64,000 nucleotides of DNA from the NCBI GenBank assembly GCA_048940605.1, contig JBHLOJ010000001.1, positions 9,185 to 73,184 of the forward strand. Direction: 5' to 3'. This document shows, one piece after another, positions 40,824-57,854 of the stretch. This DNA is from Promethearchaeota archaeon (lineage in GTDB: Archaea > Asgardarchaeota > Lokiarchaeia > Sigyniarchaeales > SOKP01). The translations under genes and the position numbers were made by a program. The notes under the pieces are model-generated. The model was not told the DNA's origin. It made no database searches and saw only the letters and a program-made list of their open reading frames with translations. Every line of letters begins with the position of its first letter. The first letter of the stretch is position 1.

Positions 40824-40902
40824 GAGAAAAACAGAAGCTATTGATGTAGAAAAAATAATCACGTTCGTAAAAAAGGAACGAACAGGTTTAAATAGGGACT
40901 AA

Positions 40903-42060
40903 TTATGGGGTAAAATCTTTACATTTATTTGTAAATTTTATTTCATTCCCTTTAGAACACTTTAGAGTCGAACAGTTCTTTTCACATTTTAAACAACGTG
41001 TGATGCGTACATGTGAGCAATAATAGCAACACAATTTTGTATCTTTTTCCTTGAGCTGTGTTATTGTTAATTCGTCCTTATCTTTGCTACAGCTAATATT
41101 CTTAGTTTGCATCTTACTTGATTTTTGAGATTCCTGTTTTACAGAGTCAAGTCTACATTTTTGTTTCATTTTTTTCATATAGTTCTTTCCTGCTTCCATA
41201 AATTGCTTACCACTCTCTTCTTTTATGGTGTTTTCAACTGTCTTTATTTTATTATGGACATTTTCAATTTGCTGTAATTCTGTAGCTAGTAGACTTGTAT
41301 CATTTTTGTCTGCATCCTCGATAGAATTCGTAGATATATCAAAGCGCCCTTTTAGCTTTTTCTTAATTATCATTCTGTTTTCTATTTTTCTTAAACGGTC
41401 TAATAATTCAGTTTGAGTTATTTTTCCTTCCTTAATTAAATGTATTGACTGCTCGTCAAGTTTATTATCTAAAATGGCTTCGGCTATACGAGTTTTAACA
41501 AACATTGTTCGTTTAGCAATTCCGAAGTCTTTATAATATTTCTCTACGAATGCATCGGGAGATGAAAACATAAGTGCATCCGATGCATTTATGGTTTTGT
41601 GATCTGGAATTTCTGGGTTTTTACGGATATACTTTCCTTTTTTTGTAACAGGATACGTCTTTTCATATTTCCTTTTTAACTTGCCTAGACCTAGATAAAA
41701 TTCATAGGAAGTAAAATTCTTACGATTGTTATTTTCTATAAATTCGATATATAATTCATCAAACTCAGATAGGTTAGAATAGATTTTTGCCCTTATTGAT
41801 TCCCACCCACTGTCGTAAGCTACTAGGAATCTTATATACCCAGCCAGGAGTTTATAATTATCATTTAAGGTTATTGGATGGAGTTGTCCGATTTTACCCA
41901 TAGATTCTTTGGTAGCAATAAATCCTGGATCCAACTTATAATTTCCCGTTTCTTGACGAATTCTTTGTTGTGGATTTAGTTTAACCTTGTTAAGAGGAAC
42001 ATCTTCATCTCTTGTTGTATATGTAGGCGTTGACTCAGAAACATGATTCTCTTTAATCAT
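40903..42060 (-). CDS. ParB/Srx-fold N-terminal domain protein with Cys-rich C-terminal tail
   Basis: VPLNKVKLNPQQRIR...SMGKIGQLHPITLNDNYKLLAGYIRFLVAYDSGWESIRAKIY...IEFIENNNRKNFTSYEF follows the ParB N-terminal pattern (Q.R, G.l.Pi.v, G.rR..A, EN..R..l...E). The C-terminus is CCYYCSHVRITRCLKCEKNCSTLKCSKG...KCKDF. Confidence 0.7.
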   Translation of the reverse strand: MIKENHVSESTPTYTTRDEDVPLNKVKLNPQQRIRQETGNYKLDPGFIATKESMGKIGQLHPITLNDNYKLLAGYIRFLVAYDSGWESIRAKIYSNLSEFDELYIEFIENNNRKNFTSYEFYLGLGKLKRKYEKTYPVTKKGKYIRKNPEIPDHKTINASDALMFSSPDAFVEKYYKDFGIAKRTMFVKTRIAEAILDNKLDEQSIHLIKEGKITQTELLDRLRKIENRMIIKKKLKGRFDISTNSIEDADKNDTSLLATELQQIENVHNKIKTVENTIKEESGKQFMEAGKNYMKKMKQKCRLDSVKQESQKSSKMQTKNISCSKDKDELTITQLKEKDTKLCCYYCSHVRITRCLKCEKNCSTLKCSKGNEIKFTNKCKDFTP

Positions 42061-42064
42061 CTTC

Positions 42065-42226: not shown

Positions 42227-42540
42227 AATTTGACTCACTGTTCGAAGGGTTACCCCCTAAATTTATGCCTTTTTACGGTATCCTATATAATTACCTTTTT
42301 CTATACCAATATAGATCTTTATTCGCTGTATTTAAACTTTTATACTATATCGGTATAGCATGGGATCTAGCTCTTTCGGATTGAGTAAAGGAATGACATT
42401 TTTCACGAGAATCTCAAGTTAGGGCATCTTATAAAATTTTCAAGCTTTTTCTATCCCTAAATCTTTAACATATATATTTAAAAACTATCCTACATAATTG
42501 TTAAACTGAAATTCGAAAATCTATTTACAACATATATAAT

Positions 42541-44538
42541 GTGATAAAATTGAGAAAAAAACATTTTTTGATTTTGATAACTTTACTACTAACAACTCTA
42601 ATTGGACTAATTGGGATTGCTCCTCAACAAGTACATGCGGATGATCCTATATCCTATGTCCCGACTAGTTACCAAGGTAAAAAAGGATCATACAGTGGCG
42701 GCAGTCTCGACAATTTATGGGAAAAAGACTCATTATATTTTGAATGGGATGTTGAGTCTACCTATATACCACCGTTTTTTACCATATATGAATTTAAAGT
42801 AGTATTCTTTTTTGATGAGAATGTTGGCCCTGTGAATGAAATCCGCATAGAACTAAGTTTCCACCAGCAAGTCAGCATTCAAGTTCATTATGAAGATGGA
42901 AGTGCTGAAGGTGGTACTACATGGCAAGGATCGTGGAGCGTAAGTCCTAATGGAAAAGAAGTAGTTAAAATAATAGCGTCATGCATATATTTTTATCCGG
43001 CAAATCCAACATGTAGATTTAACCTGATTCGCTTATATCCAATCGCGATAGCATCCCCAGCTGATGGAGCAAGTTATTCGGAGCCAATGGAAGGATACTA
43101 TCCTGGAACATATGGTTTTGAAGATGAAATTGATGGAACCTCTGGAACAGCGATTGATTTCATTGACAGTGCATCCGCCTACTCATGGTGTAAAATCCAA
43201 GGATCTTATACAGACACTAATAATGTCATCCATAACAAAGTATTACATGTAGAAGATATGTATAGAAATTATTATACAAAAGTTAGCCATACCTTTGATT
43301 CTCCACAATACCTAGCTACTATAGATTTCTGGTTTTTGATGACAAATAAATATACTGGACCAGTTGATAAAATTCTATTTTATGCTACAGATGACCAAAA
43401 TAATATTATCTTTCGATTAAATATGGGAGATGGAAAAATCATAGATTCAGGCGAAAATGAAGCGCCTATGTCGTATAATAAGTGGTATCATATTAGAATT
43501 TACTTTGTTTCAATTTTACCTGAGGGGTATTATGATTGGTATCTAAATGATGAGTTACAATATTCCGATGTTCCCTGCGAGACTTCTTATGTATATACGT
43601 CAAAACTAGTCATCGCATCATATGATGATTATTTAACTAAAGGAGAAGCGTACTTTGACGCATTTGGGTTTGATTGGGAACCTGGTTATACTATTGGTCT
43701 TAATCGCAAAGAAGGTATATTTGTTGATATTAAACATACTAATATAGATAATCTGAATTATAGTATAGATGATGGTGAATCTATAGATATTAGAGGAGAT
43801 TTTGTTATCCCTTTCCCATTTACGAGAGATCATACCATTAAAGTAGGGGGAACGTCTGATGGTATTCCGGTAGAAAGCCCACCGACTACATTTTCATTTG
43901 ATTATGGAGAAAAATATGCCGTCCTCATTTGGAATGGACATATGAGTGGTGAGTGGCGTACAGAATATTATTCAATATTATGGGCTGAAGGATTTCATTA
44001 TATATTTCAGGATGAGAACCCAAGGAAAGAGGACGTTGCGTATCTATTATCGGATGTAGCAGATATTGCAAATGAAAATGACATTATTTTTATCTACCTG
44101 TTTGGTTGGGGATACCACACGGGGGGGATTTCTTCCATAATTTTTTTTGGTTTGCATCCAGACCATTGGATTACTTCTACACAATTGAAATATTATATAG
44201 ACCAAATTCCATCCTCGAGAAAAATGGTCTTGGTAGGGAGCTCTTTTTCAGGTCAATTTATCGAAGCTTTTGATGAAGATGGTTATATCATTATGACTTG
44301 CACCGATACAGAGTCCCATGGACATATATTTGATGAATATATTCCACCCACTGATTTTTACCATGAGGAGATTTTTGTTGATGCATTCTTTGATGAAATA
44401 ACGAATGGTGCTACTTCATATGAGGCATTCGCTATAGCTCAACCTTATATAAAGGATATGTATGAAAATGAACCTTACGATGAAAGACAAAATCCTCAAA
44501 TGTCTGATCGGTGCGATATTGATTTCTTTGGATATTAA
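42541..44538 (+). CDS. Secreted LamG-like + clan CD (caspase/legumain-like) domain protein with the catalytic dyad replaced (probable pseudo-peptidase)
   Basis: Signal peptide: IKLRKKHFLILITLLLTTLIGLIGIAPQQVHA. The LamG-like module contains WYHIRIYF...YFDAFGFDW. The C-terminal domain aligns with the paralog at 45105..47132 but reads IIFIYLFGWGYHTGG and KMVLVGSSFSGQF where the paralog has LHGHG and AHCCHAGGF. Confidence 0.8.
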   Translation: MIKLRKKHFLILITLLLTTLIGLIGIAPQQVHADDPISYVPTSYQGKKGSYSGGSLDNLWEKDSLYFEWDVESTYIPPFFTIYEFKVVFFFDENVGPVNEIRIELSFHQQVSIQVHYEDGSAEGGTTWQGSWSVSPNGKEVVKIIASCIYFYPANPTCRFNLIRLYPIAIASPADGASYSEPMEGYYPGTYGFEDEIDGTSGTAIDFIDSASAYSWCKIQGSYTDTNNVIHNKVLHVEDMYRNYYTKVSHTFDSPQYLATIDFWFLMTNKYTGPVDKILFYATDDQNNIIFRLNMGDGKIIDSGENEAPMSYNKWYHIRIYFVSILPEGYYDWYLNDELQYSDVPCETSYVYTSKLVIASYDDYLTKGEAYFDAFGFDWEPGYTIGLNRKEGIFVDIKHTNIDNLNYSIDDGESIDIRGDFVIPFPFTRDHTIKVGGTSDGIPVESPPTTFSFDYGEKYAVLIWNGHMSGEWRTEYYSILWAEGFHYIFQDENPRKEDVAYLLSDVADIANENDIIFIYLFGWGYHTGGISSIIFFGLHPDHWITSTQLKYYIDQIPSSRKMVLVGSSFSGQFIEAFDEDGYIIMTCTDTESHGHIFDEYIPPTDFYHEEIFVDAFFDEITNGATSYEAFAIAQPYIKDMYENEPYDERQNPQMSDRCDIDFFGY

Positions 44539-44732
44539 TTAATCTTAACTCCTTTTTTTTTTATTTTTTGTATTTCAGCTTTAAATTCATTAAGACCATT
44601 GATTGTTAATGATTTACCTGCATAGAAATCTACGGACTTTAGCCTTAACTGTTGAATTCTACCTATTACTCCTTCATATACTTGGTCATTTGGAAAGCCA
44701 TGAAGAAGATCAGAATGGAAGAATGTTTGCAT
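44535..44732 (-). CDS. Doubtful 65-aa ORF or gene fragment
   Basis: ORF track entry. Its C-terminal KIKKKGVKIN is the reverse complement of the neighbour's T-tract terminator. The frame stays open upstream to 44840 without a start codon, so it may be a 3' fragment. Confidence 0.25.
   Translation of the reverse strand: MQTFFHSDLLHGFPNDQVYEGVIGRIQQLRLKSVDFYAGKSLTINGLNEFKAEIQKIKKKGVKIN
44553..44569 (+). terminator. Oligo-T terminator after 42541..44538
   Basis: T10-A-T6 starts 15 nt after the TAA. A conserved TTAATCTTAACTCC precedes it. Confidence 0.45.
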
Positions 44733-45104
44733 TAAATGATATTTCCATTTATCTGAGGAGATATTAGTTCGTAACTTGAAACTACCTTGACTTTCGCTAC
44801 TAAGTTTATAATTAACTCTTATGCTTATTCTGATTAATTTCTAACTGTTCATAAATACTTGATTAATACATAAAAATTTAAATCTAGAACTCCCTAATAC
44901 TCAAAGAGTTCCATTTTTTAACCTGTAATTTCATCTTTTTTATTACCTTATTTTATTTTTTATATTTTTTTTTGGAGGATCAGTTTATTCCTCTTTTTTC
45001 ATAAGTCCTAAAGATATTTAAATATTCAAAATTCTTAAAAAGCATATCTACAAAAAAATCCAAGTTTTAAAAATTCAATAAATAATTCATAAAGTGTTAT
45101 AAAT

Positions 45105-47132
45105 ATGAGAATTAAAAACAAAAACATAATGATTTTCTTCTTTTTGTGTTCAATAATACTTTCGACCTTGTTTTTTCTCAACACATTTGCCACTGTCAAT
45201 TTGAATGAACCTAATGATCCCAAAGTAGCAACAACGTCCACTGGTGTTATCAGACCAGACGGAAATATTCAAAATCAATGGGGCACCTCAGATTACTCTA
45301 GAATAGACGATGAAGTAAATAAACCAAATCCAGGGGATGGAGTTTCTAATGCTCACTCAGGTAATAACGAAATTGTCGTAGATATTTTCAGCATGGGAGA
45401 ATTCGAAGACTACGATTGTTATGATGTGTTTTCTATTAAAATACATTTAAGGTGTATGGCCATTGTTCTCCATGGCGGTTATGCAAGAATCCAGGTAACT
45501 TATAGGTTTGGTGATGAGGGAATGTGGAAAAGCCCTCTACGCACAGTAACATCTCCTTTCGGCTGGGACTGGATAACATTTACATGGGGTGCCTCGGGAG
45601 CAGATGAGTTAGATATAGATGAGTTACAGGTAAAGTTAATTGCGGATATAAGTGCTAGCGGAGAAGGGGGCGGTGTTTCTGTTGATGTTATGTATGCCGA
45701 ATTTGAATATGAACCTACAATTCGTATAATAAGTCCTGAAGATGGAGCAAGTTTCTCGGAACCAATGGAGGGATATTATCCGGCAAGTTTCGGATTTGAA
45801 AATGATATAGTTGGTCAAAATCCCTCTGGATGGGGTATTAATGAATATATAAATGTAGAAGCAGAAATTGATGGACATAAAAAAGTAGTTAAAGCAATGC
45901 CAGAAGCCGCTTTTGATTATGCCATAATGGGAAATACTTTCACAGGGCAGACATCAGGAAAGATTGAGATGTGGTATAGATGTGAAGTCGTAGAAGACTT
46001 CGATTTGTTCTATTTATATGACACTTACCAAAATGTGGCAATTAAGATAGAAAGAACAAATATTGGGAATTGGAGATATCATGGCAGAGACGGTTGGGTT
46101 GTTTTTTCGAGTGGTGAAGTCTCAGCAGATACATGGTATCATCTTCGAATCGATTTTGATTGTGAACTAGACAGGTTCGATTTTTATATTGATGGAGATT
46201 TAAAAGTAGATCATGGTCTTTTTTTCGATTGGAGAAATTCAATTGGGGAAATACGGTTAGCATCATTTAGTTTTGATGCTTTTGCATATGGATGTTATTT
46301 TGATGCAATCGGATATTCTTGGGATCCTAAATATAACATTGGAGATAATCTTAAGGAAGGTCTGTTTTTTGATATTGAACCTACTGATGCAGATGATATG
46401 TGGTATAGTTTAGATGATGGCGATCCTGTAAGCATTACAGGTGATTTTGTAATCCCATTTCCATTTACTAGACACCACACGATTAAAGTAGGCGGAACGA
46501 TTGATGGTACGGAAGTAGAAACCCCCACTACTGCTTTTTCGTTTGATTTCGGAGAAAAGATAGCAATTCTCTTTTGGCTTGATGAGGTGAATGGAACACA
46601 TATAGAAGACTATATAGAAATCTTGGAAAACGAAGGGTTTACTAAATTCTATTGTGATATGAATCTCGAACTAGGTGAGTTTTATAGTATATTTGACCAG
46701 GTGGATGCTTATGAAGATGAGAATGATATTATTTTCCTCTACTTGCATGGACATGGTGCTAGATCGGGTGATGATACAATTATACAACTTCATCCTGAAA
46801 TTACTTGGAAGTATCGTGCTACGGAGTTTATGATAGAGATGGCTCAATTGGAATCCAAACGGAAAATGGTATTAGCCCATTGCTGTCATGCGGGAGGTTT
46901 TGTTAATTATTTTGATTTTGAACCATACACTGTTATCTCATCTTGTAAAATTAATGAACTTAGCCGCCATTATCCATCGGGTGAGGGTTATTTTAATCGC
47001 CCTTTCTTTGATGCTATTGAAAATGGGGCTAATGCATACCAAGCGTTTTCAATTGCATCTGCGGAAGTGGCTAGTAGTGGTATGACACCGCAGATCTCTG
47101 ATTTATGCGATATTACCTTCTTTGCATATTAA
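45105..47132 (+). CDS. Secreted LamG-like + clan CD (caspase/legumain-like) cysteine peptidase domain protein, catalytic His/Cys present
   Basis: Signal peptide: MRIKNKNIMIFFFLCSIILSTLFFLNTFA. LamG-like module: WYHLRIDFDCELDRFDFYIDGDLKV...YFDAIGYSWDPKYNIGDN. The C-terminal domain has NDIIFLYLHGHGARSG (His-Gly, nt 46743-46757) and RKMVLAHCCHAGGF (Cys, nt 46881-46886), as in C13/C14-type peptidases. Confidence 0.8.
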   Translation: MRIKNKNIMIFFFLCSIILSTLFFLNTFATVNLNEPNDPKVATTSTGVIRPDGNIQNQWGTSDYSRIDDEVNKPNPGDGVSNAHSGNNEIVVDIFSMGEFEDYDCYDVFSIKIHLRCMAIVLHGGYARIQVTYRFGDEGMWKSPLRTVTSPFGWDWITFTWGASGADELDIDELQVKLIADISASGEGGGVSVDVMYAEFEYEPTIRIISPEDGASFSEPMEGYYPASFGFENDIVGQNPSGWGINEYINVEAEIDGHKKVVKAMPEAAFDYAIMGNTFTGQTSGKIEMWYRCEVVEDFDLFYLYDTYQNVAIKIERTNIGNWRYHGRDGWVVFSSGEVSADTWYHLRIDFDCELDRFDFYIDGDLKVDHGLFFDWRNSIGEIRLASFSFDAFAYGCYFDAIGYSWDPKYNIGDNLKEGLFFDIEPTDADDMWYSLDDGDPVSITGDFVIPFPFTRHHTIKVGGTIDGTEVETPTTAFSFDFGEKIAILFWLDEVNGTHIEDYIEILENEGFTKFYCDMNLELGEFYSIFDQVDAYEDENDIIFLYLHGHGARSGDDTIIQLHPEITWKYRATEFMIEMAQLESKRKMVLAHCCHAGGFVNYFDFEPYTVISSCKINELSRHYPSGEGYFNRPFFDAIENGANAYQAFSIASAEVASSGMTPQISDLCDITFFAY

Positions 47133-47149
47133 CTAATCTTAACTCCCAC

Positions 47150-47169
47150 TTTTTTTTTTATTTTTTTTT
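47150..47169 (+). terminator. Oligo-T terminator after 45105..47132 (between convergent genes)
   Basis: T10-A-T9 starts 18 nt after the TAA. CTAATCTTAACTCC precedes it, 13/14 identical to the sequence after the paralog. Confidence 0.45.
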
Positions 47170-47205
47170 ATCTTATGTGGTGATTGTAGTATTTGAAAGA
47201 TCAGT

Positions 47206-47406
47206 TTATTCCTCTTTTTTCGTAAGTTTTAACTGCTGTTTTTTATAGATGAGCTCGATCAACTCTTTAATTGCTTTACGACCTCCCGCAATGAATAATT
47301 CAGTAGCAGATCGATAAAATGGACACGCTTCGATAAGTTCTAGGGCTTCTTGTACCAAATAGTCTGGAATTGCGACACTATGATATTTTGATTTCTTTTT
47401 TGCCAT
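47206..47406 (-). CDS. Ribbon-helix-helix (CopG/Arc-like) DNA-binding protein
   Basis: HSVAIPDYLVQEALELIEACPFYRSATELFIAGGRKAIKELI fits beta-strand, helix, helix. GAGGTGA lies 7 nt upstream of the ATG. Confidence 0.55.
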   Translation of the reverse strand: MAKKKSKYHSVAIPDYLVQEALELIEACPFYRSATELFIAGGRKAIKELIELIYKKQQLKLTKKEE

Positions 47407-47417
47407 GTTTTTTCACC

Positions 47418-48056
47418 TCAGATTGTATAGAGCATTAGCCATCGTCTTTTAAAAATAATACTCTCATTTACCAAGCAATTCTGGTTATGAACCACTATCT
47501 CCCCATATTTACAGGCATAAAAAAGTTGATCGACTAAGCGATTATTTCGAAATAAGGCATCACCCGTTATTTTCATCTCGGGATTGATAGAGTAGAGGGC
47601 TTCTAGGAGGGATTCAAAGACACCGAGTTGAAGATTAATGATGGGGATCTCTTCAATATGAGTATACTTGGATAGCTCGATATCTTGACATTCTAAATAG
47701 TGATAAATCTTCTTTATCTCTATTTTTTCGTGGTCACTAAAGGTAAAAAAAACTAGACACTCAAAACTACTTAGAATTTTCATCAGAAGTAAGTACAGTT
47801 CTACCTTATACTCATAATCCTCGATATAAAAAGAAAATAAGGTGTCAAATACCATGAGTCCCACCATGAAAACAGGGTTGCCTTCAAAATCTAAGATTGC
47901 TGCTTGATGGATAATCGGAGTAGATAAAGATTTAAGTACAAGCTTCACATGGTCTCCTCTATCGATGGATTTCAATTCTTTAATAATTTTTTCATAATCA
48001 AAAGTTCGGGTGATTGTATAGGCATAATTCCATTTTTTCAACTCATTCATCCCCAT
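47418..48056 (-). CDS. Hypothetical protein (212 aa); weak resemblance to an RNase H-fold/DEDD-type exonuclease
   Basis: Overlaps the upstream gene by 14 nt (ATGGGGATGAATGA). AAILDFEGNP...LVFFTFSDHEKIEI is a loose D-x-E ... (N/S)-x2-(F/S)-D pattern only. Confidence 0.6.
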   Translation of the reverse strand: MGMNELKKWNYAYTITRTFDYEKIIKELKSIDRGDHVKLVLKSLSTPIIHQAAILDFEGNPVFMVGLMVFDTLFSFYIEDYEYKVELYLLLMKILSSFECLVFFTFSDHEKIEIKKIYHYLECQDIELSKYTHIEEIPIINLQLGVFESLLEALYSINPEMKITGDALFRNNRLVDQLFYACKYGEIVVHNQNCLVNESIIFKRRWLMLYTI

Positions 48057-50340
48057 CCCTGAGAGTAAATTCTTTTAGGAACTTTACAATGGAAAAATAC
48101 ATTAAACTCACAAAATACATCGCATTAATGAGCTTCTCTTCTTTATCATCGCTCTCATTTCTAACCTCTCCGATGGAGTGACGGGCGATATCGAGGAGAG
48201 CAGACACTTCCTTTTTTAATAGTTCGAGTGAATTTTTCTGATTCTGAGGTAAGATTAGAGATTTTTCATTTATCAATGTAATGTCAATGATTAAATACAC
48301 TGCAATACTGTACATATTTTCAGTTTGAGTAAGAAAATTGGAAAATTCCCATTGGTTTTTGAATAATTCGAGTAAATACTCTTGATTTTCTTGAATAAAG
48401 ACCGGTGATTTGGTATTAAAGAAAAACTCATGGTAATATAGAGTAGTCAGGCAATTGTAGAAAACTGGAAAGCTAATAGTATCTGTAAGTAGATGTAATC
48501 TCAGCAAATCAAGTATTTTATTCTTATTTTCTATCTCTATATCTTGTAATAATCTGTTAATTTCAATAGATAGTTTTCTCTCCTCTATCCCATTCTTATT
48601 AAGAACTCGTTTATAAATATAGTTATAGACTCCTCGTAGTTCATAGAAGTGATGCCAAAAATGAAATGAATTGGGTGTCCTTCTCATCGCGTAGGTAGTG
48701 CCAAATCTCAACAAGGTGGCAAAACTGGGATACAATTTATCAGGACGTAAGAGCATCTGGACATGGTCTCGAGTGATGGTATTTGGTTTCTGTAAGAACA
48801 GGTCTGCGTCATTTGTATCAAATTTATCTAGCACAGCTTTGATTTTCGCATCCTCTAGTACATTACTATACGTTAAATATCGCTCAGAAATCCCTTCTCC
48901 TTTTCCATCGGAAATAGGAATTGAGACCAATCGACTTAGAGGATGAGGAGAGAAGAGGCGAAATACACCTTTATTCACGCTTGAAGTATCTAACAATATC
49001 GCTATTAAATCCTTCGAATCGACTGCTAACCGAAAAAGCTGTTGCCCATGAAGAATCTTTAATTTTCTGCGGATTTCGGGAGGGACGACAATGGTTTCCT
49101 TGTATACCGTATAAAGGAGTAGCGATTGTAAGAGAGACTTTATAAACTTGAATTTATCGTTCAAACTACTAATTTTTTCTTTTTTCAATGTGGTGATCCC
49201 TGGAAGTAACGAATTATCTGCTAACTCGGGTAAATTGACATGATGTTCAATGTCGGTAATCGTATCATAGTCCATCGCATATAACAGATGGATTCCTCTG
49301 GAACCGCTGAAAATCATCTTAAAAGACGGAAGTCCTAAACCTTGAGCGGTAGTATTTATTGCCTGTGCGATATTGGTAGTGAGTTCCCAAATAGTCTGTC
49401 GCGAAAACATACTGGAAAGGAGTGAAGGGATATCAATATCAATAAGCAGGTAAAGGATATCATTGTTGGTACTTCTTACGCTTAAATAAATTCCTCCAAT
49501 ATCGTTCTCTTGTACAATTTCCTTATATTTTTCATAGGGGGTATTCTTTGAGAGTAATTGGTGAAACTTCATCTTGGTATCTTTTAATGATACAGTTCTT
49601 CGTTTTGCTGGAAATTTATCTTCCTTAACAATATCTAAGGTGATCTCCGCATTCCCTTGAAAGTTATCAGGGAACATGTACGTTTTTAGGATTTCATAGA
49701 ATTTGGGATGTTGAAGATACTCGGTGTCGTCCGTTGATAAAAAATCGTGCAATTCGTCATATTCTTTGCGTTCCAAGTTATGCTCTAAGACTTGATCATA
49801 TTCCTCTGTTCCTTTCCTTTGGATATAGACCTTTCCGATGATTTGTTGAGCAAAGGTAAACTCGTCAAGAGCCCACATCTTTATAAAAGCAACTATATCT
49901 CGGAGTTTTACTAATCGCAAGTTAAATTCCATTGAGATAATATCCATGCGATTACTTTCTCTGGTGTACTCGTTTTTTACCAGATATTCTAATCTCTGGA
50001 GTTTTATACCATCTTTAAACACATAATAGCGATCAATAGTGAAGTTGAGTTTATTCATTAAATTTGAGATGGCATACTTAATCATATCTTTGGTCTTATC
50101 GAAGGTAGCTTCCGTTTCATGGCTTTTAATCACTCCTTCTTCATAGAGAGTGTTGATAACATCAATATCAGGGCTAAGGATTTCCAGTTGCACTTTTACT
50201 TTTTGAATTCGATTATAAATGTCATCTTTTCCTTTGGTAAATTCAGTTCGTAATATATCAATAAACTGCCTGAAGTCAAAGGTGGACGTGGAGATATCTT
50301 CCAGTAAGTAGTCAATCTTCGAAGCATAATAGAGACTCAT
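48043..50340 (-). CDS. Archaeo-eukaryotic primase (AEP) superfamily primase-polymerase-like protein (765 aa from Met-20 of the track ORF)
   Basis: Motif I: YLLIDIDIP (about nt 49430-49445). Motif II: MIFSGSRGIHLLY (about nt 49287-49310). Motif III: ILLDTSSVNKGVFRLFSPHPLSRLVSIPI (about nt 48938-48996). These correspond to DxD, sGxGxH and D...R..S.H of PriS/PrimPol. The start was moved to ATG 50338-50340, which sits 1 nt after the upstream stop at 50342-50344. Confidence 0.75.
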   Translation of the reverse strand: MSLYYASKIDYLLEDISTSTFDFRQFIDILRTEFTKGKDDIYNRIQKVKVQLEILSPDIDVINTLYEEGVIKSHETEATFDKTKDMIKYAISNLMNKLNFTIDRYYVFKDGIKLQRLEYLVKNEYTRESNRMDIISMEFNLRLVKLRDIVAFIKMWALDEFTFAQQIIGKVYIQRKGTEEYDQVLEHNLERKEYDELHDFLSTDDTEYLQHPKFYEILKTYMFPDNFQGNAEITLDIVKEDKFPAKRRTVSLKDTKMKFHQLLSKNTPYEKYKEIVQENDIGGIYLSVRSTNNDILYLLIDIDIPSLLSSMFSRQTIWELTTNIAQAINTTAQGLGLPSFKMIFSGSRGIHLLYAMDYDTITDIEHHVNLPELADNSLLPGITTLKKEKISSLNDKFKFIKSLLQSLLLYTVYKETIVVPPEIRRKLKILHGQQLFRLAVDSKDLIAILLDTSSVNKGVFRLFSPHPLSRLVSIPISDGKGEGISERYLTYSNVLEDAKIKAVLDKFDTNDADLFLQKPNTITRDHVQMLLRPDKLYPSFATLLRFGTTYAMRRTPNSFHFWHHFYELRGVYNYIYKRVLNKNGIEERKLSIEINRLLQDIEIENKNKILDLLRLHLLTDTISFPVFYNCLTTLYYHEFFFNTKSPVFIQENQEYLLELFKNQWEFSNFLTQTENMYSIAVYLIIDITLINEKSLILPQNQKNSLELLKKEVSALLDIARHSIGEVRNESDDKEEKLINAMYFVSLMYFSIVKFLKEFTLRDGDE

Positions 50341-50341
50341 C

Positions 50342-51115
50342 CTAGACCACCCCCTCCACTTTTTTGTTTTCTGCCATGCTGTGTTGTAAAAAGGCATTTA
50401 AATCCTCTTGGAAGTCATTGTCCACTAGTACGTTAAAATATTTTACTAACAATAGCAATTTACATAAAAGCGATATGCCGAAACTCTTCATGTTAAATTC
50501 AAAAGTGCCTTGCTTGGATTTGAGTAAATCAAGTACAGTTGAGTTCTGGAGATCGGCTTGAAATTTTTTGTAAGAATCTTCAAAAAGGAGTTTTAGCTCT
50601 TCTTTGGTGGTCAATACTGGAGAAATTGGATTGTGAGGGGGAGATATGCCTTGAGAAGGAGTAGTACCACTGGTGGAAAGCACCCCTTCTTGAAGATTCT
50701 TGTGTGCCATTCCCTGATTTTTATCTATGGTAGTGTTTTCTGGAGTGGTTTCAATGCCATTTTTCTGAAGCTCGGAGAAGGTGTAGGTCTCCTCTAGGGG
50801 AACAATTACTTTAGGGTGATTTTTACAATAGAATGTTAAAGAGCGAATGGTAATTTGGCTCTCATGAGGATGAAGTATATTCTCAAGCGGAAAAAAAAGA
50901 GTAAAATAATGGGAATTATATTCAATATTTCTGTTATAAATCCTACATTGTTCTTTCACCTTCTTGAGAGGATCATTTATTAAACTAATTTCATAATTGA
51001 CAGTTACACTTTTCAGATGCTCAGGAGTGATATACTGGTCCTTATCTACTCCATTTCTTTCACAAAAAATCGAAATACCACTGTCTATATGAAACTTAAT
51101 ATTTAACACGTTCAT
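50342..51115 (-). CDS. Hypothetical protein (257 aa), first gene of the AEP operon
   Basis: ORF track entry. It has two domains joined by a low-complexity linker (TSGTTPSQGISPPHNPISP). No motif recognised. Confidence 0.65.
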   Translation of the reverse strand: MNVLNIKFHIDSGISIFCERNGVDKDQYITPEHLKSVTVNYEISLINDPLKKVKEQCRIYNRNIEYNSHYFTLFFPLENILHPHESQITIRSLTFYCKNHPKVIVPLEETYTFSELQKNGIETTPENTTIDKNQGMAHKNLQEGVLSTSGTTPSQGISPPHNPISPVLTTKEELKLLFEDSYKKFQADLQNSTVLDLLKSKQGTFEFNMKSFGISLLCKLLLLVKYFNVLVDNDFQEDLNAFLQHSMAENKKVEGVV

Positions 51116-51294
51116 TTTTTTTAACCTATGAATTGTAGCAATTATCTTAATTTCTTAAGATAGCTAAAATTCTAAAATTGGCTTTTTAAAGTACGAGAAT
51201 AATTTCTAATGAAGATGGTAACCCATTAAAAATAGAGAGAAGAAACTATAAGGTACCATACTGTAAAAGATTAAGAGATAAAAAGGAGGGGAGA

Positions 51295-51384
51295 ATGGCA
51301 CAGAGTCAAGAAAGAAAAATGAATTTGCTACAATTCATAACGCGCCACAAACCCCCCGTAGTTGAGTATAAAAATAGTGTATAG
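51295..51384 (+). CDS. Possible small ORF (29 aa) with a strong SD
   Basis: AAAAGGAGGGGAGA-ATG. Translation: MAQSQERKMNLLQFITRHKPPVVEYKNSV*. The patch is locally GC-richer in the divergent region upstream of the AEP operon. Confidence 0.2.
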   Translation: MAQSQERKMNLLQFITRHKPPVVEYKNSV

Positions 51385-51688
51385 GCATGATACGATCTCA
51401 TTCCCTAAGATAGAAAATAAATAATTAATGTTAGTATATCCATATAGTATTTATGGAGATATTTAAACTACGAAAGTTTGCCAGATTAGAAATTTGTTAT
51501 TTCAGTCCTATGTGGTTTAATTAAGTTAAAATAAAGAGTCAGTTTCTTTATCTATTATGAGAGAGACATATTTTAATAGAATTTCAATTGGTTATCTGAC
51601 TGGGTAGGATTTCCCAGATTCTTGAATTAAAGAAAAATCCTCCATTGGAATCACTGATTATGGAAATACTTACTACAAAATCATATTG

Positions 51689-52315
51689 ATGAGCAGAAAA
51701 ATGGCAGAATTATCTACGGAATATATTAAAGCTATTGAAAAGATAATCTTCAAGGGAGACGATATTGAGGATAGAACCGAACGACACGAATATATTCAGA
51801 AGAGCTTAGCTGAATTTTTTCGCTTATTAGACTTTGAGGTATTCATTGAATATCCTGTTGGATGTATTCATTTTGATCATACAAGCGACCATAACCGAGA
51901 TAGTCAATTTAGAGCCTACTTTGGTAAAGTAGATATATATGTTAAGGCTCCAAGTAAAATTGAAATCGCAATTGAGTTTGACAATGCTGCCACCTTAAAG
52001 CGATCTTCTATTCGAAAATTTTTGCAAAGTAAAGCTAATATTTGTATAGGTGTTATACAAGGTTCGATTTCTAAAAAAAAATCTAATCTTCCTTATGACC
52101 AGTTAATGAATAATAACGTGACCAAATTTAAACCAGTAATCGAGGAAACAATGTATTTTTATGATGTAATACAAGATCAGGAAAAACATCAATTTTTAAA
52201 AAGAAAAATTTTTTATCTAGGAATAATCAATCGGAAAATTTTTGAAGATATAACCCCATTTGTCTTAGACTTCATAAAAAAAAATAAAAGGGATTCATTT
52301 TATTATTCGCTCTAA
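51689..52315 (+). CDS. Hypothetical protein; possible PD-(D/E)xK-like nuclease fold
   Basis: The track ORF starts TTG-ATG, and I take the ATG at 51689. GKVDIYVKAPSKIEIAIEFDNAATLKRSSIRKF gives a loose D ... E-x-D/K arrangement only. Confidence 0.6.
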   Translation: MSRKMAELSTEYIKAIEKIIFKGDDIEDRTERHEYIQKSLAEFFRLLDFEVFIEYPVGCIHFDHTSDHNRDSQFRAYFGKVDIYVKAPSKIEIAIEFDNAATLKRSSIRKFLQSKANICIGVIQGSISKKKSNLPYDQLMNNNVTKFKPVIEETMYFYDVIQDQEKHQFLKRKIFYLGIINRKIFEDITPFVLDFIKKNKRDSFYYSL

Positions 52316-52429
52316 GTTTTATATAAAACTTGTCTAGGTTATCTATTTTATAATAAGAATAAGTCGGCAATATAACTGAAATCAATCTTTATTCTGGATA
52401 TAGTGAAAATTAGAAATTTGTTATTAACA

Positions 52430-53881
52430 TCATTTTTCGTGCCCACACCATATGCAGATATTTTGACCTATATCTAGAACAGCTCTTCCACAGTATGAAC
52501 ATCTCCAAAAACCAGGTATGGTTGGCTGCTTTAATCTCAGATTTTTAAGCTCCTCCTTTAATTGTAAGTACTTTCTCTCTAGTCCACTTGGGATAGTAGG
52601 AACACACCTAGGAAAATAATAACATTTAAGTCTAAAATCAATAAGTTTAAGGCAACTTAGAATAAATTTACTTTTTTCTTCATTAAACCGGTTAGAAATA
52701 TTCTCTAAAGCTTTTTTTAGAGTGGATAAATATTTCAAGTTATCTCTCGAAATCTTCGAAAAAAATATTTCGTCACGAGATGTGTCACGAGATGGAATGT
52801 GCAGCCTAATTATAAGATCATAAATTGAAGAAAAGTTTTTTTCATTCTCAGGAAGCCTTAGAATTTTAACTAAAATATCTTCCAGTAAAGTGGGAAACTG
52901 CACCAGACAAGATCCTAAAAGCTGAACCAGCATGTTAGATTCAGAAATGTGCTTAACAAGGTTCGTCGTTTCTAAAATAGTTTTTAATTCATTGGGACTG
53001 AAAATTTCTATATATCTTTGGTGGAGGAGATATTGAATTACAGAAGGATAACCGCTTTCGATCCTGAGCACAATCTCTTCTTTATAAACTTTTTTTGCTT
53101 TTGCATCTCCTGCTCTTGTCAATGCTCTTAGCAATGGAAATGAAACATTACTCATTAGAATCCTCGTGTCGTAGTCATACTCAACCCACGTTTGGATGTT
53201 TGAACAATGTCCCCAGAATTCCTGCTCTGGAGTAATATCATGGGTTTGGTTTGGTAAAGGTACAGCCTGTGGTCCTTCTACGATTCTATTTTGAAACAGA
53301 TGTTTATTATATAATTTAGCCGCTTCGTCTATAGACTCAACTTCGTCATATAGAGGGACTTCTTCCTTTGGAATGTCTAAAGCTAACCGAATACACTGGA
53401 GGAATCTCATTCCATCAACATAAATAAATGTTTTTCCATCTATTAGCTTGAGTGTGATATAAGGATTTATCTCTTTTTCAATTGAAATTACACGTTTCTT
53501 CCATCTATCAAGCTTTGAGTCTTGTTTTTGAGGTCTTAAAATTGGAAATTGAAAATCTTTTGGAAATAGTTCCATCTCCATTTTTAAAAGTTTTATTTCA
53601 TCTTCCATTACCTTTATTTCTCGTTCTCGATCGACCTTAGATCTCCTTATACTGAATCTTTCTTTCCGTTTCTGCTTAATCAAATCGTCAACATCATCGC
53701 CTGCTTCCTTCCGTTTATAGAGTATTTCTAATTCCTTTGATATCCTTAATGTCTCTTTATGATGTTCTTTTTGTTTTTGCCAACTCTTTTCACGATAATC
53801 ATCAAGGCGTTTGGACAACGTTCTATGTTCCTCCCAACGAATCTTTAATTCTTTAAGATCTTTCTTTTTCATTTCAACCAT
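52430..53881 (-). CDS. Coiled-coil protein with alpha-helical repeat region and C-terminal zinc ribbon
   Basis: The K/E-rich N-terminal ~130 aa suggest a coiled coil. The C-terminus is WRCSYCGRAVLDIGQNICIWCGHEK (CxxC...CxxC). Confidence 0.7.
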   Translation of the reverse strand: MVEMKKKDLKELKIRWEEHRTLSKRLDDYREKSWQKQKEHHKETLRISKELEILYKRKEAGDDVDDLIKQKRKERFSIRRSKVDREREIKVMEDEIKLLKMEMELFPKDFQFPILRPQKQDSKLDRWKKRVISIEKEINPYITLKLIDGKTFIYVDGMRFLQCIRLALDIPKEEVPLYDEVESIDEAAKLYNKHLFQNRIVEGPQAVPLPNQTHDITPEQEFWGHCSNIQTWVEYDYDTRILMSNVSFPLLRALTRAGDAKAKKVYKEEIVLRIESGYPSVIQYLLHQRYIEIFSPNELKTILETTNLVKHISESNMLVQLLGSCLVQFPTLLEDILVKILRLPENEKNFSSIYDLIIRLHIPSRDTSRDEIFFSKISRDNLKYLSTLKKALENISNRFNEEKSKFILSCLKLIDFRLKCYYFPRCVPTIPSGLERKYLQLKEELKNLRLKQPTIPGFWRCSYCGRAVLDIGQNICIWCGHEK

Positions 53882-54043
53882 TTATGGTTTTTGTTAATAT
53901 CCAAAATTTCTCTTTATTGATGATAGAAAATACAGTCTTCGCCAAAAGTGTATAGATTATTATATAAAATATAAAATGAGCTCTATTTAAAATTAATCAA
54001 CCCTTAATAAAACAAAGTTGAAAATACTTTTCATTCGTACTCT

Positions 54044-54499
54044 TTACTGATTGTCCATTTTTTTCCTTAGTAATGAAATGGCGATGGCACTGCTTACCTG
54101 CTGTTTCTGAATAAAGTCAATAAGGAGTTCATTGTCAATGGCGCTCACATCGATGTTCTCGACCACTTTCTCAATCTCATTCTCAATCTCGAGCACCTGC
54201 TTTTCGATTGCCTTCCCGATTTTCCGATGGATGCCCCACGTTCCCAAGAATCTCTGCTCTATAGGGTTAGTAGGGATGATAACTTTCTTGATTTTTTCGC
54301 GAACGGTCTTTCGCACTAAATCCGAGATGCTCTTATATTCGGTGAGGTCTACGTAATGCTGATATAATGCCAACTCTTCGGGAAGCATGCGGATGGTGAG
54401 GGTTTCGCCTTTCGGTTTTTTGGCATTCTCTTTTTCCAAGACCTCCTCCAGCTTCTCCAAGACCTCATCATCGATGGCCACAATATTTTTCACTACCAT
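54044..54499 (-). CDS. Hypothetical protein with a probable ribbon-helix-helix segment
   Basis: GETLTIRMLPEELALYQHYVDLTEYKSISDLVRKTVREKI fits beta-strand, helix, helix. Confidence 0.55.
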   Translation of the reverse strand: MVVKNIVAIDDEVLEKLEEVLEKENAKKPKGETLTIRMLPEELALYQHYVDLTEYKSISDLVRKTVREKIKKVIIPTNPIEQRFLGTWGIHRKIGKAIEKQVLEIENEIEKVVENIDVSAIDNELLIDFIQKQQVSSAIAISLLRKKMDNQ

Positions 54500-54609
54500 A
54501 GGAAATTATTTGGGTTTAAAAGATTTAAAATTTATCAGAGAATGAATTGCTTCAATTATTAAAAAAAAAGGTTAGGATTTCTTTAAATGTGTTCTATTGG
54601 TACTTAATT

Positions 54610-55581: not shown

Positions 55582-55898
55582 AATAATTTCACACCTCTAT
55601 TTTGTAAATAAAAATGATTATGATAAAAGTAGACTCTTTTGTATATAAACCTTTTAGGTCTGAAATTACACATTTAGATCATTCCAAAAGTAGAAAATTT
55701 TTCAAGTTGTGTCAGCACAAAATAGGAAAAATGTATAAACACTTTCACAAAACCATCAACCTAATATTTTATTTTAGACCGAATTTTTGTGTAACACCTT
55801 GAGTAATTGAGCATGATACTGAAGTGAGGGGTTCTTTTTTAGGGTTCAGGTGGCGAACGTTGCCTACTCTCGGATTGCCACATGAACGGCATTTTATT

Positions 55899-56214
55899 TA
55901 ATTAGGGGAATAAGTAATGTCATTCCTCTCATAGTGATATCATGCCAGTTACTTCTTTGACACCTTTTAGTTGTTTTTTACGTTAATTTCGATTATACCA
56001 ACACCTTGTTAGAAAATCGTATGAGTTTAAATAAGCCATTATATACTACTAATTAGGATTTCGAGATATCTCTATTATTCGATGGAAACATTTACCGCAT
56101 TGTGATGTTACACACAAATTATGGGTACCATCAATGACCTCAACGATAAATCATTACTGTCATCCCATTTTTATTGGTAATAGTTCTCATAAAACACAAT
56201 AATTCCCCTAATTA
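55899..56214. repeat. Perfect 13-nt inverted repeat pair bracketing ~290 nt of non-coding DNA
   Basis: TAATTAGGGGAAT lies at 55899-55911 and its exact reverse complement ATTCCCCTAATTA at 56202-56214. Confidence 0.4.
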
Positions 56215-56251
56215 CGAAGGTAAAAAAATAAGACAAAAAGTAGGATTGTAC

Positions 56252-56782
56252 GTGAGTTTAAATAAAAAAAAGTTAAAAGCGGCGGTCTTTATTGACCACT
56301 CTAATATTGCCTCACCGCTATTAGAACCTAATTGTAGAAAGCATGAACGGATTGATTATAAAAAGTTAAAGGACATCCTATTCCGAGGATATAGAGAAGG
56401 AATAGCCATCATGTTTTTGGGAGTGATGGATCCGATGAGAGCTGAAAAGGAAAAATTTATGAGATACTTAGAAAAAATCGAATTCGTGCTCATGCGGGTG
56501 CCTCTTATGAAAAGAAAGGACGGCACTCTTGAACAAAAACAGCTTGATATTTTAATGCATGAGATGATGGTATCTTATGCAGAAGCTAATGAGTTTGATG
56601 TCGCCATTCTGGTAAGCGGAGATGCTGATTTTGTGTTGTCAGTACAGATAATAAAGAACATGAATAAAGATGTAGTGGTATGGAGTTGGAAGCAATCCAT
56701 GTCGTTACAGTTATTAGAAGTAGTAGGAGAAGGTAATGTGTTTTATATTGACGATGTCTGGAACTCGATTCGGAAAGAATAA
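56252..56782 (+). CDS. NYN-domain (LabA/DUF88-like) protein
   Basis: AAVFIDHSNI...KQLDILMHEMMVSYAEANEFDVAILVSGDADFVLSVQIIKNMNKDVVVWSW follows the NYN/LabA pattern (FIDg.N ... D..l..D ... vLvSgDsDF.p.v..l...g..V). The track ORF starts at TTG 56174. I prefer GTG 56252, with AGGA 6 nt upstream, because 56174-56251 overlaps the inverted repeat. Confidence 0.7.
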   Translation: MSLNKKKLKAAVFIDHSNIASPLLEPNCRKHERIDYKKLKDILFRGYREGIAIMFLGVMDPMRAEKEKFMRYLEKIEFVLMRVPLMKRKDGTLEQKQLDILMHEMMVSYAEANEFDVAILVSGDADFVLSVQIIKNMNKDVVVWSWKQSMSLQLLEVVGEGNVFYIDDVWNSIRKE

Positions 56783-56837
56783 GCCAAAAAGCAATTTTAA
56801 ATTTATTAACATCTCTAAACTTAGGAGTTATTGCGTC

Positions 56838-57854
56838 TTAAAATTTCAGTAAAAGGGGAAAGCCACCAAAATATCTGGTGAAGTAAAGCCTTAATTCCTC
56901 ATCGTCCATTTTTCTATGGAGTACCCCGTTTTTTAACATATCGATAATAAAGAGAATAAGATCATGTTGTAAAGCAAGGAAATCTGTCTTAAACTTACCT
57001 TCTACTCTAAAATTCTTTGCTTCTTCAAAAAAATCGTTAGCTTTCTTAATACTAGTAACTATTGAACTAATATCGTTGAGTTTCCTCTCAATTTCGATGA
57101 TAGAAGTAGAACGGAATGTCTCCGAAAAATAAACGCATAGATAAAAACTAACCTTAAATATGGCTTTGGTTAATTCTGCCATAACCTTTTTAGTATCCTT
57201 TATTTCTTTCAAGCTTTTCTCTATATGGTATAACCCTCGCGCTAAAATGTCATCATAATCGAAGTCAAGGGTGGTAATATCAGGTAACTTCGCTCGGATA
57301 TCTTCTCCGTAGAGCAATTTTGAGTTTTCGGGATTTTTAAGTTCAAGAAGAGCCCATTCATGATTTGCTCCAGAAAAATCCTTAAACGTTTTCTTATTTT
57401 GATACATTTCAAGGGTATTATATCCGATAAATACTTGAAAGCCTTCCACATTTCGAGAATAAAATCGCTTATCCCACTTTTCTTTGGGAATATCCTCTAT
57501 TGATTTTACTATCAAAATCAGATCGATATCATTTTTTAACCACAGCTCAGGGAGATTCTTGTCAAAGAAACTACCGATTCCATATATCGCAATAAGATTA
57601 TCTGAATGAATCTCCACTAGCTGATTAATGAGGTTTTTTACCAGAAGATCTTCATCGATAACGATGTTATTTTTTTCTAATAGCCAGGTATCGATTAAAA
57701 AGGGCTGAATAATCGTCTTATCGGAAGAAAATTCCGAGTGGATTGTGGATTTTGGAATCCAATTCTCCCGCCCTGACCGGAACCTGATAAGTACTGCCTT
57801 TTCTGTTTCAACAATTATTCCGCCGTGTATTTTTGTTTGAACGGGTTTATTCAC
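56838..57854 (-). CDS. Pol-beta-superfamily nucleotidyltransferase (MNT/KNTase-like) with extra N-terminal domain and helical C-terminal domain
   Basis: LIAIYGIGSFFDKNLPELWLKNDIDLILIV matches the minimal NTase signature (hG.GS ... sDiDl.v.v). GTG start. Confidence 0.7.
   Translation of the reverse strand: MNKPVQTKIHGGIIVETEKAVLIRFRSGRENWIPKSTIHSEFSSDKTIIQPFLIDTWLLEKNNIVIDEDLLVKNLINQLVEIHSDNLIAIYGIGSFFDKNLPELWLKNDIDLILIVKSIEDIPKEKWDKRFYSRNVEGFQVFIGYNTLEMYQNKKTFKDFSGANHEWALLELKNPENSKLLYGEDIRAKLPDITTLDFDYDDILARGLYHIEKSLKEIKDTKKVMAELTKAIFKVSFYLCVYFSETFRSTSIIEIERKLNDISSIVTSIKKANDFFEEAKNFRVEGKFKTDFLALQHDLILFIIDMLKNGVLHRKMDDEELRLYFTRYFGGFPLLLKF

Follow-up and report, generated by a model that had tools for sequence, protein, structure and literature searches.

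A very divergent primase-superfamily protein in a conserved gene array of Asgard archaea

Introduction

What does a primase-like protein do in an operon of its own, with no helicase beside it, in an Asgard archaeon? We asked this of a four-gene operon in a 64,000-nucleotide stretch of DNA from a Promethearchaeota archaeon (contig JBHLOJ010000001.1, positions 9,185 to 73,184), which we call the window. The second gene encodes a 765-amino-acid (aa) protein that a first-pass annotation of the window had described as primase-polymerase-like. We found good support, from conserved residues and a predicted structure, for the conclusion that this protein is a very divergent enzyme within the superfamily of archaeo-eukaryotic primases (AEPs), with a nucleotidyl-transfer center, and that it represents an undescribed family. 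The family, its architecture, its partner proteins, and the leader element in front of the operon match no curated model, and we did not find them in the literature that we searched.

Interest in the replication proteins of Asgard archaea comes from the position of these archaea as the closest known relatives of eukaryotes. Loki-group Asgard lineages already carry canonical PriS and PriL, and a published treatment of Asgard primases covers these two proteins only (PMC12770985). The 765-aa protein would therefore be an extra AEP, and some Lokiarchaeia and their relatives would carry a second AEP enzyme besides PriS/PriL. The locus also offers defined genes and motifs for the biochemistry of a primase-polymerase that has no helicase, Zn, or Fe-S and that comes with a possible nuclease partner, and it contains a conserved RNA or inverted-repeat element that is new and covaries clearly.

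The 765-aa protein has a conserved AEP catalytic center

We found the motifs LIDIDIP, FSGSRGIHLLY, and LLDTSSVNKGVFRLFSPHP in the 765-aa protein, in the order that had been reported for them. Within these, LIDIDIP fits AEP motif I (hhhDhD), FSGSRGIH fits motif II (sGxGxH), and LLDTSS fits motif III (hD). We aligned 22 full-length homologues, which are as little as 23% identical, and found that D301, D303, S345, G349, H351, D451, R461, and H466 are invariant. By analogy of position, D301, D303, and D451 would hold two metal ions, and S345, H351, R461, and H466 would hold the incoming nucleotide. With no helicase of its own, such a protein would initiate DNA or RNA chains on a template, elongate them, or do both.

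The AlphaFold2 (AF2) model of the 765-aa protein (pLDDT, 84; pTM, 0.85) is divided into a mixed α/β region (residues 1 to 280), the AEP core (about 281 to 520), and an all-helical domain (524 to 759). This agrees with the N-terminal and helical C-terminal regions that had been placed on either side of the core. In the model, strands 297-303, 341-356, and 448-461 bear the three motifs. When we compared the model with the PDB using Foldseek, the 12 best matches were all AEPs (E values from 7e-5 to 3e-2; probability, 0.96 to 1.0). Structures of Prim-PolC gave E values of 7e-5 to 2e-4 (6sa0, 6sa1, and 5op0; the best was 6sa0, at 7e-5), and the CRISPR-associated Prim-Pol CAPP (7nqf) and Pyrococcus PriS (1v33) both gave 1e-3. 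Pfam and structure comparisons were the checks proposed with the first-pass annotation; with significant fold matches to AEPs and with the motif residues conserved in homologues, its central claim of an AEP-superfamily enzyme with an intact catalytic center stands.

No curated AEP sequence model in Pfam, NCBIfam, PHROG, or PADLOC matched the 765-aa protein significantly. Pfam DNA_primase_S aligned with residues 301 to 355 at an E value of 0.086 and 13.6 bits, below its cut-off of 26.8, and the family profile met yeast and human PriS chains in the PDB at an E value of about 0.2. An exhaustive profile search of 1.84 billion representative proteins gave 88 relatives in all. The distant relatives of 425 to 630 aa reach Pfam LigD_Prim-Pol, one of them (P0208) above the cut-off, which links the family transitively to the AEPs. 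We rejected an N-terminal bromodomain, to which a profile match with polybromo-1 pointed (E value, 0.15); the AF2 model has a β-strand at residues 45 to 56 and not a four-helix bundle.

The 765-aa protein differs from the AEPs that it most resembles. Mycobacterium smegmatis Prim-PolC (5op0 and 6sa0) has the same fold (TM score, 0.50 over the target) and catalytic triad layout and is likewise a stand-alone AEP without a helicase. However, it is only about 330 aa long, is 12% identical, and has no counterpart of the 280-aa N-terminal region or of the 240-aa helical C-terminal domain. Prim-PolC is also bacterial and acts with a ligase in excision repair, whereas we recognized no ligase or Ku at this array. 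LigD PolDom and Prim-PolC enzymes are characterized by an association with Ku and/or an ATP-dependent ligase and by a length of about 300 aa; among the window proteins scanned and the genes annotated in the loci looked up, we found no such association, and the length of 765 aa does not fit either.

Archaeal PriS (Pyrococcus horikoshii 1v33 and Pyrococcus abyssi 9f28) shares the AEP fold at an E value of 1e-3, and the only Pfam and PDB sequence hints for the 765-aa protein point to PriS. PriS, though, pairs with the Fe-S protein PriL and has a Zn-binding module. The 765-aa protein contains one Cys and so has no Fe-S or Zn site, none of its partner genes matches PriL, and the window proteins that we scanned include nothing like PriL. 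The organization is therefore unlike that of the PriS/PriL pair, as had been noted. CAPP shares the fold (TM score, 0.55) but is 10% identical, has another domain architecture, and belongs to a CRISPR-Cas context that is absent here. The Walker A pattern [AG]xxxxGK[ST] is absent from every open frame of at least 80 aa on both strands of the 64-kb window. This bears out the earlier remark that no helicase lies nearby and sets the protein apart from primase-helicase fusions (pRN1 ORF904 and D5-like proteins), in which a P-loop domain is fused or adjacent.

Among homologues of the AEP protein, every source name that gives an organism is Asgard, with Promethearchaeota (Loki), Thor, and Odin labels; a distant subfamily is labeled Sigynarchaeota. 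None of the homologues carries a Pfam domain or a functional name. The GTDB species representatives that we scanned gave only seven matches, all in Promethearchaeota. One distant, short subfamily (564-aa P0180; loci L011 to L013) lacks the C-terminal helical domain. It has a Rad51/RadA-like gene upstream and a gene for 660 to 830 aa directly downstream, and none of the operon's partner genes accompanies it.

The operon is part of a longer conserved array

The four genes lie on the minus strand with the spacings first reported for them, which we confirmed from the coordinates (Table 1). A single nucleotide (50341) separates genes 1 and 2, genes 2 and 3 overlap by 14 nt (48043-48056) so that the start of gene 3 overlaps the AEP stop, and 11 nt (47407-47417) separate genes 3 and 4. 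The longest frame of gene 2 (48043..50397, minus strand) would encode 784 aa, and an internal ATG at 50340 gives 765 aa. We preferred the shorter form because homologues begin at an equivalent MSxYY.

We clustered the open reading frames (ORFs) of 37 loci and compared their gene order. The order of the 257-aa, AEP, and 212-aa genes is kept wherever flanking sequence exists (24 to 26 loci). The AEP gene follows its neighbor after 0 to 1 nt or with a 4-nt overlap, and the 212-aa gene overlaps the AEP stop by 10 to 16 nt in six of the eight distinct loci measured. Order and overlaps both recur, in about 25 to 37 loci, and support the view of a tightly coupled operon. The operon had also been called a self-contained set of four genes, but the conserved unit proved to be longer. 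The full array consists of genes for an NYN protein, the 257-aa protein, the AEP protein, the 212-aa protein, a probable ribbon-helix-helix (RHH) protein, a small cyclin-like protein, and a ParB-like protein, with a structured leader in front of the operon.

The cyclin-like protein (105 to 140 aa) follows the RHH gene in 10 loci and has a weak match to the ORC6 cyclin-like domain (E value, 0.002). The ParB-like gene closes the array and is present in 12 loci. Its L005 homologue scores 30.9 bits on Pfam ParB_N (cut-off, 26.3), and in the family alignment the window copy reads GYIRF where its relatives read GFRRF. A 205-aa zinc-ribbon protein replaces the cyclin-like and ParB-like pair in some lineages. 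In the window, two tandemly duplicated LamG/caspase-like genes have displaced the ParB-like gene from the array.

At the other end, the NYN gene in most loci shares the strand of the operon and lies immediately upstream of the leader. It is within 10 kb in 11 loci and directly upstream of the array in L016 and L017 (loci with DNA) and in one JGI contig. A nucleotidyltransferase-like gene accompanies the NYN gene in seven loci; its L001 homologue has a weak NTP_transf_2 match (E value, 0.009), and the window copy has no Pfam match. The pair is inverted in the window and lies 5 kb from the operon. One lineage (L001 3253-3930 and L027 2812-3855) has a TIR protein gene (TIR_2; E value, 3e-22) directly upstream of the leader, beside the NYN and nucleotidyltransferase genes, and this stretch has the look of a defense island.

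The partner proteins form families of their own

The 257-aa protein has a β-rich N-terminal domain, a Pro/Ser-rich linker, and a conserved helical C-terminal domain (FGISLLCKLLLLVKY.N.LVDNDFQ.DL). We found 46 homologues, and again every source name that gives an organism is Asgard. The protein had no match in Pfam, the PDB, NCBIfam, or PHROG, and we detected no relatives of the family outside the array context. It would act as an accessory subunit, one of two translationally coupled partners with which the AEP protein would work.

The other such partner is the 212-aa protein, for which a faint DEDD-like pattern had been noted. Its 31 homologues, Asgard wherever the source name gives an organism, have no Pfam domain. 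The invariant residues in the family alignment include D56 and E58 (DFEG), S107, E110, D166, H190, and N191, so the conserved acidic pattern (D56, E58, E110, D166, and H190) was upheld, but the fold assignment was not significant. A Pfam scan of 23 members, a PDB profile search, a fold search, and an hhalign comparison with the DnaQ ε subunit all failed to reach significance, and we treat membership in the DEDD group as no more than a tentative idea. The AF2 model (pLDDT, 85) has the element order β-β-β-α-β-α-β-α, which, judged from element order alone, would fit an RNase H-like fold. A reasonable guess is that the 212-aa protein is a candidate metal-dependent nuclease of RNase H fold; such a nuclease would probably trim or remove primers.

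A homologue of the 66-aa protein directly follows the 212-aa gene in 13 loci. The protein was originally labeled RHH. The gene is conserved and the common pattern KY.SVQIP..L....YRSHHEFI fits a β-α-α arrangement, but no RHH model matches, nor does any Pfam family at an E value of ≤1. Since no Pfam RHH match exists, we infer the fold from this pattern and regard the 66-aa protein as a probable RHH protein.

A structured leader precedes the 257-aa gene

In most loci, an ORF-free region of 440 to 630 bp lies before the 257-aa gene, whatever the upstream gene. We aligned it across 14 loci (alignment A5) and across a wider set of up to 22 loci. It contains two predicted archaeal-type promoters, P1 and P2, a palindrome, a predicted 3' hairpin, and an inverted repeat whose two arms flank P2 (Table 1). 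The P1 TATA box lies 352 nt upstream of the gene 1 ATG in the window and at -331 to -412 in loci with enough upstream sequence. P2 lies about 70 nt upstream of the ATG and at -58 to -78 in nearly all loci. We found the same design in 14 of 20 loci, namely, those in which our script could locate both P1 and the T-run.

Table 1. Positions in the window of the operon, the AEP motifs, the leader element, and the associated array genes
Feature	Position	Strand	Length	Basis or remark
Gene 1 ("C1")	50342..51115	minus	257 aa	ORF call
Gene 2, AEP-superfamily protein	48043..50340	minus	765 aa	ORF call and internal ATG
AEP catalytic core, residues ~281-520	48781..49500	minus		Invariant columns, AF2 strands
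Motif I, D301/D303	49432-49440	minus		Invariant columns
Motif II, S345..H351	49288-49308	minus		Invariant columns
Motif III, D451, then R461 and H466	D451 at 48988-48990	minus		Invariant columns
Gene 3 ("C2")	47418..48056	minus	212 aa	ORF call
Gene 4, probable RHH DNA-binding protein	47206..47406	minus	66 aa	ORF call
Promoter P1 TATA box TTTAAATA, preceded by B recognition element (BRE)-like CTTTCGTAG	51460..51467	minus		Invariant in 14/14 aligned loci
Imperfect palindrome ATACTATATGGATATACTA (ATAxTATAT-nn-ATATAxTAT)	51432..51450	minus		Conserved block, alignment columns 444-463
Predicted structured transcript/leader, P1 to C-run and T-run	51280..51441	minus	~160 nt	14-locus alignment
3' hairpin, G-run to C-run CTCCCCTCC and TTTTT; encloses arm 1	G-run 51352-51357; C-run 51285-51293; TTTTT 51280-51284	minus
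Arm 1 UAUGAAUUGUAGCAA, core of longer segment complementary to the 5' untranslated region (5'UTR)	51325..51339	minus		Inverted repeat I11, 15/15 complementary
Promoter P2 TATA box TTTAAAAA, preceded by CTCGTAC	51183..51190	minus		Invariant T/A columns
Arm 2 UUGCUACAAUUCAUA, in 5'UTR	51127..51141	minus		Directly before GG of likely Shine-Dalgarno site; ATG at 51113-51115
ParB-like protein, C-terminal Cys-rich zinc-ribbon-like tail	40903..42060	minus	385 aa	PHROG 4715, E 2e-13
NYN-domain (PIN-like RNase) protein	56174..56782	plus		Pfam NYN, E 2.9e-14
Nucleotidyltransferase-like protein, GIGS...DIDL motif	56838..57854	minus	338 aa	Convergent with NYN

The basal stem of the 3' hairpin covaries. 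In a model-fitted alignment, all 13 of its pairs show compensatory changes and 88% of the cells are paired, compared with 68.5% in shuffled controls (0 of 500 as high) and 45 to 62% in slid controls. This result needed subgroup alignment and a covariance model; RNAalifold found no hairpin in a plain MAFFT alignment of all lineages, in which the 3' arm is misaligned. The window copy folds at -32.3 kcal/mol (z score, -2.0).

Arm 1 lies within this hairpin and is complementary to arm 2. In the window, the duplex of the two arms has an energy of -29.1 kcal/mol, versus -13.6 ± 2.8 kcal/mol for shuffles. The energies are -25 to -35 kcal/mol in 20 of 21 loci, versus -12 to -21 kcal/mol for dinucleotide shuffles (z scores, -2.8 to -5.6). 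Between lineages, in at least 12 loci, the arms keep their position but change in sequence.

We favor the view that the leader is a regulatory RNA, judging from its promoter boxes, its T-run, and its position at the ribosome-binding region. The transcript from P1 would carry a 15- to 40-nt segment, within a terminator-like hairpin, that pairs with the 5'UTR of the P2 mRNA, and this pairing beside the ribosome-binding site would limit translation. Expression appears to have a second control as well: the palindrome lies a short way downstream of the P1 TATA box, about where transcription would be expected to start, and is possibly an operator for the RHH protein, which would probably bind it there.

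Rfam gave no match at an E value of ≤1 for window positions 40000 to 58000. A bacterial promoter and terminator scan also misses the leader, whose promoters are archaeal-type and whose hairpin loop is too long for the scanner. In L002 (1218-2334), a second full leader copy (92 bits with model R1) accompanies paralogues of the 257-aa gene (211 aa) and of the RHH gene, with no AEP gene. The arm sequences of the two L002 copies are identical, so the copies could cross-regulate.

Origin and role of the array

What, then, is the array for? The reading that we favor, tentatively, is that it is an element-derived, plasmid-style AEP replication-initiation cassette that is now resident and fixed in the chromosome. 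It would most likely descend from a plasmid-type module for replication initiation and copy control. The cassette would now be dispensable in the chromosomes of some Lokiarchaeia and their relatives, where the host would have to supply the MCM helicase and the replicative polymerases. We favor this origin because the array combines an AEP and a helical domain with an RHH protein, a leader-complementary RNA, and cyclin-like and ParB-like genes, and because its flanks are variable and it is easily lost. A further reason is that, in published surveys, the non-PriS AEPs of archaea and bacteria are nearly always encoded by mobile genetic elements and are often fused to helical PriCT-type domains (PMC5862659). 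The helical C-terminal domain of the 765-aa protein would probably play the role of the PriL C-terminal domain, PriX, or PriCT and hold the initiating nucleotide and the template.

Known plasmids offer partial parallels. ORF904 of pRN1 with the CopG-like ORF56 unites an AEP, a helical accessory domain, and an RHH regulator in one unit (in part from PMC5862659). Unlike the 765-aa protein, ORF904 has a helicase domain and PolpTN2 has a PriL-like Fe-S domain; both are plasmid-borne, whereas no plasmid record holds a homologue of the protein studied here. Neither ORF904 nor PolpTN2 appeared in sequence or fold searches with the operon proteins. In pMV158-type plasmids, a CopG RHH repressor and an antisense RNA to the translation-initiation region of the rep mRNA exert joint control. 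The array resembles this arrangement in having a probable RHH gene and a predicted RNA segment complementary to a translation-initiation region. The pMV158-type RNA, however, is a true antisense from the opposite strand, while the segment here would lie upstream on the same strand, inside a terminator-like hairpin.

A number of observations weigh against such an origin. Searches by tblastn of 50,697 phage and 72,556 plasmid records and a pattern scan of 2.9 million IMG/VR contigs found no homologue, and a BFVD fold search gave nothing significant. The window has no integrase domain among the proteins scanned, no tRNA gene, no helicase or ParA, and no long flanking repeats. To our knowledge, no free or recently mobile form exists. 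In one genome, represented by two independent assemblies, the array lies directly beside the genes for S27ae, Kae1, Bud32, S28e, and L7Ae and is therefore chromosomal. The first-pass annotation had suggested a module of a mobile element, and these findings do not support that suggestion in the form in which it was made. Synteny of the array extends over tens of kilobases, to a giant gene, in lineages whose AEP proteins are about 45% identical, and this looks like long vertical inheritance. The components raise doubts of their own. The best structural match of the AEP protein is the repair enzyme Prim-PolC, and in Foldseek the helical C-terminal domain matches no PriL, PriX, or PriCT. The fold matches of the 212-aa protein were all weak and nonsignificant (the Nibbler exonuclease domain at an E value of 0.18, the polymerase γ exonuclease, and RNase HI), and hhalign gave it a probability of 0.2% against the DnaQ ε subunit. 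Finally, sense and antisense duplexes of the leader arms are equally stable (-28.3 versus -28.0 kcal/mol; P = 0.47), and this symmetry is as compatible with an inverted repeat at the DNA level as with RNA pairing.

The array is also decaying in places. In L010, a close relative of L017 whose flank proteins are 92 to 98% identical, only a 148-aa AEP fragment (79% identity) is left. It lies at 9971-10450 among genes for S6e, Fae-Hps, and other core functions, a setting that again speaks for a chromosomal history. In L037 (2406-3827), a deletion fuses the leader element to about residue 190 of the AEP protein, and in L038 the AEP gene is split into two ORFs. Because of the remnant and the deletion variant, we take the cassette to be dispensable and decaying. 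The array flanks are variable and rich in surface-protein and defense-like genes. Should the array be a plasmid replicon that was domesticated, it would be informative about the capture of replication modules by archaeal chromosomes.

A close rival, though we consider it rather unlikely, is that the array is a lineage-specific chromosomal module for DNA repair or damage tolerance. The AEP protein would fill gaps, re-prime stalled forks, or extend broken ends, the 212-aa nuclease would process ends, and the RHH protein and leader RNA would hold an error-prone enzyme at a low level. The Prim-PolC matches (6sa0, 6sa1, and 5op0), which are to a LigD-PolDom-like repair enzyme, agree with this, as do the LigD_Prim-Pol matches of the distant relatives, the lack of a helicase in the window, the chromosomal locus, and the translational coupling of a nuclease-like partner. 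Against it, we recognized no Ku or ligase when we looked through the genes annotated in the window and in the loci looked up, and the 765-aa protein exceeds PolDom-type enzymes more than twofold in size. ParB-like, RHH, and cyclin-like DNA-binding genes together with an RNA control circuit would be unusual for repair genes, and the distribution is patchy, with decay of the cassette in a close relative. As a repair system, the array would add a pathway to Asgard genome maintenance.

Defense against viruses or plasmids, with AEP synthesis as effector or sensor, is improbable. Its logic would be like that of CRISPR-associated Prim-Pols and defense reverse transcriptases, and NYN, nucleotidyltransferase, TIR, and NERD genes do lie beside the array in several lineages. 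The flanks are hypervariable, the cassette is readily lost, a toxic activity would go well with tight double regulation, and CAPP is among the fold matches. Yet these defense-like neighbors vary by lineage and stand outside the invariant core, and no CRISPR array or cas gene is nearby. Moreover, the 5,027 PADLOC models gave no meaningful match for the four operon proteins (best E value, 0.013, for the 257-aa protein). These results do not support the label of a defense-associated AEP, which the first-pass annotation had offered as its other option; a defense-like character is confined to neighbors in some lineages.

We hold it very improbable that the leader is the substrate of the AEP protein, with a structured RNA or DNA hairpin serving as primer, template, or origin, and not only a regulator. 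This could take the form of RNA-templated or RNA-primed DNA synthesis, as an AEP counterpart of retron- or DRT-type systems, or the AEP protein could fire a captured, plasmid-derived origin embedded in Asgard chromosomes. The leader does keep the same location in all loci, has a duplicate in L002 along with copies of the 257-aa and RHH genes, and has arms that are equally good on both strands, which is compatible with a DNA-level structure. Some AEPs of mobile elements, such as PolpTN2, have reverse-transcriptase activity (PMC5862659). However, invariance in the leader is strongest in two archaeal promoter boxes and a T-run, which suggests transcription and termination, and the placement of arm 2 exactly at the ribosome-binding region suggests translational control. 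The second leader copy in L002 also has no adjacent AEP gene. GC skew in the window tracks gene orientation and is uninformative on an origin. If the leader were a substrate or origin, the lineage of archaea closest to eukaryotes would have an AEP system of a new kind. A link like that of diversity-generating retroelements between the AEP gene and the neighboring giant surface-protein genes was dropped, as the window holds no template/variable repeat pair.

Other features of the window

The window (1-64000) has no tRNA gene, Walker A motif, or recognizable housekeeping gene. Most of its ORFs have no family assignment, barring a response regulator, a PadR-like regulator, and zinc-ribbon proteins. 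Between the operon and the NYN gene lie genes for a 483-aa coiled-coil protein with a C-terminal zinc ribbon (52430-53881, minus strand; homologue in L005), a 151-aa protein with weak DUF6290/RHH_1 matches (54044-54499, minus strand), and a divergently transcribed 209-aa protein with no match (51686-52315, plus strand). None of the three is conserved across loci.

An uninterrupted frame of at least 10,718 codons occupies 1-32154 on the minus strand and continues past the left edge of the window. This giant gene encodes a LamG-like domain. In L001, L003, L016, and L017, the AEP array is likewise followed, a few genes downstream, by giant PKD/LamG genes for 2,600 to more than 6,000 aa.

The genes that displace the ParB-like gene (42541-44538 and 45105-47132, plus strand) encode paralogous secreted proteins of 665 and 675 aa that are 38% identical and have weak LamG-like and caspase-like (Peptidase_C14) matches. 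They form a tandem duplication of about 2.6 kb inserted between the RHH and ParB-like genes, with repeats at 44971-45011/47192-47232 and 44494-44575/47088-47169. Part of this duplicated unit is a copy of the RHH gene's 3' end.

A 73-nt direct repeat, 86% identical between its copies (36229-36301 and 40427-40499), flanks a gene for 1,214 aa (36579-40223). One copy lies inside a NERD-domain gene (35940-36425), and the repeats suggest an insertion into this gene or its partial duplication.

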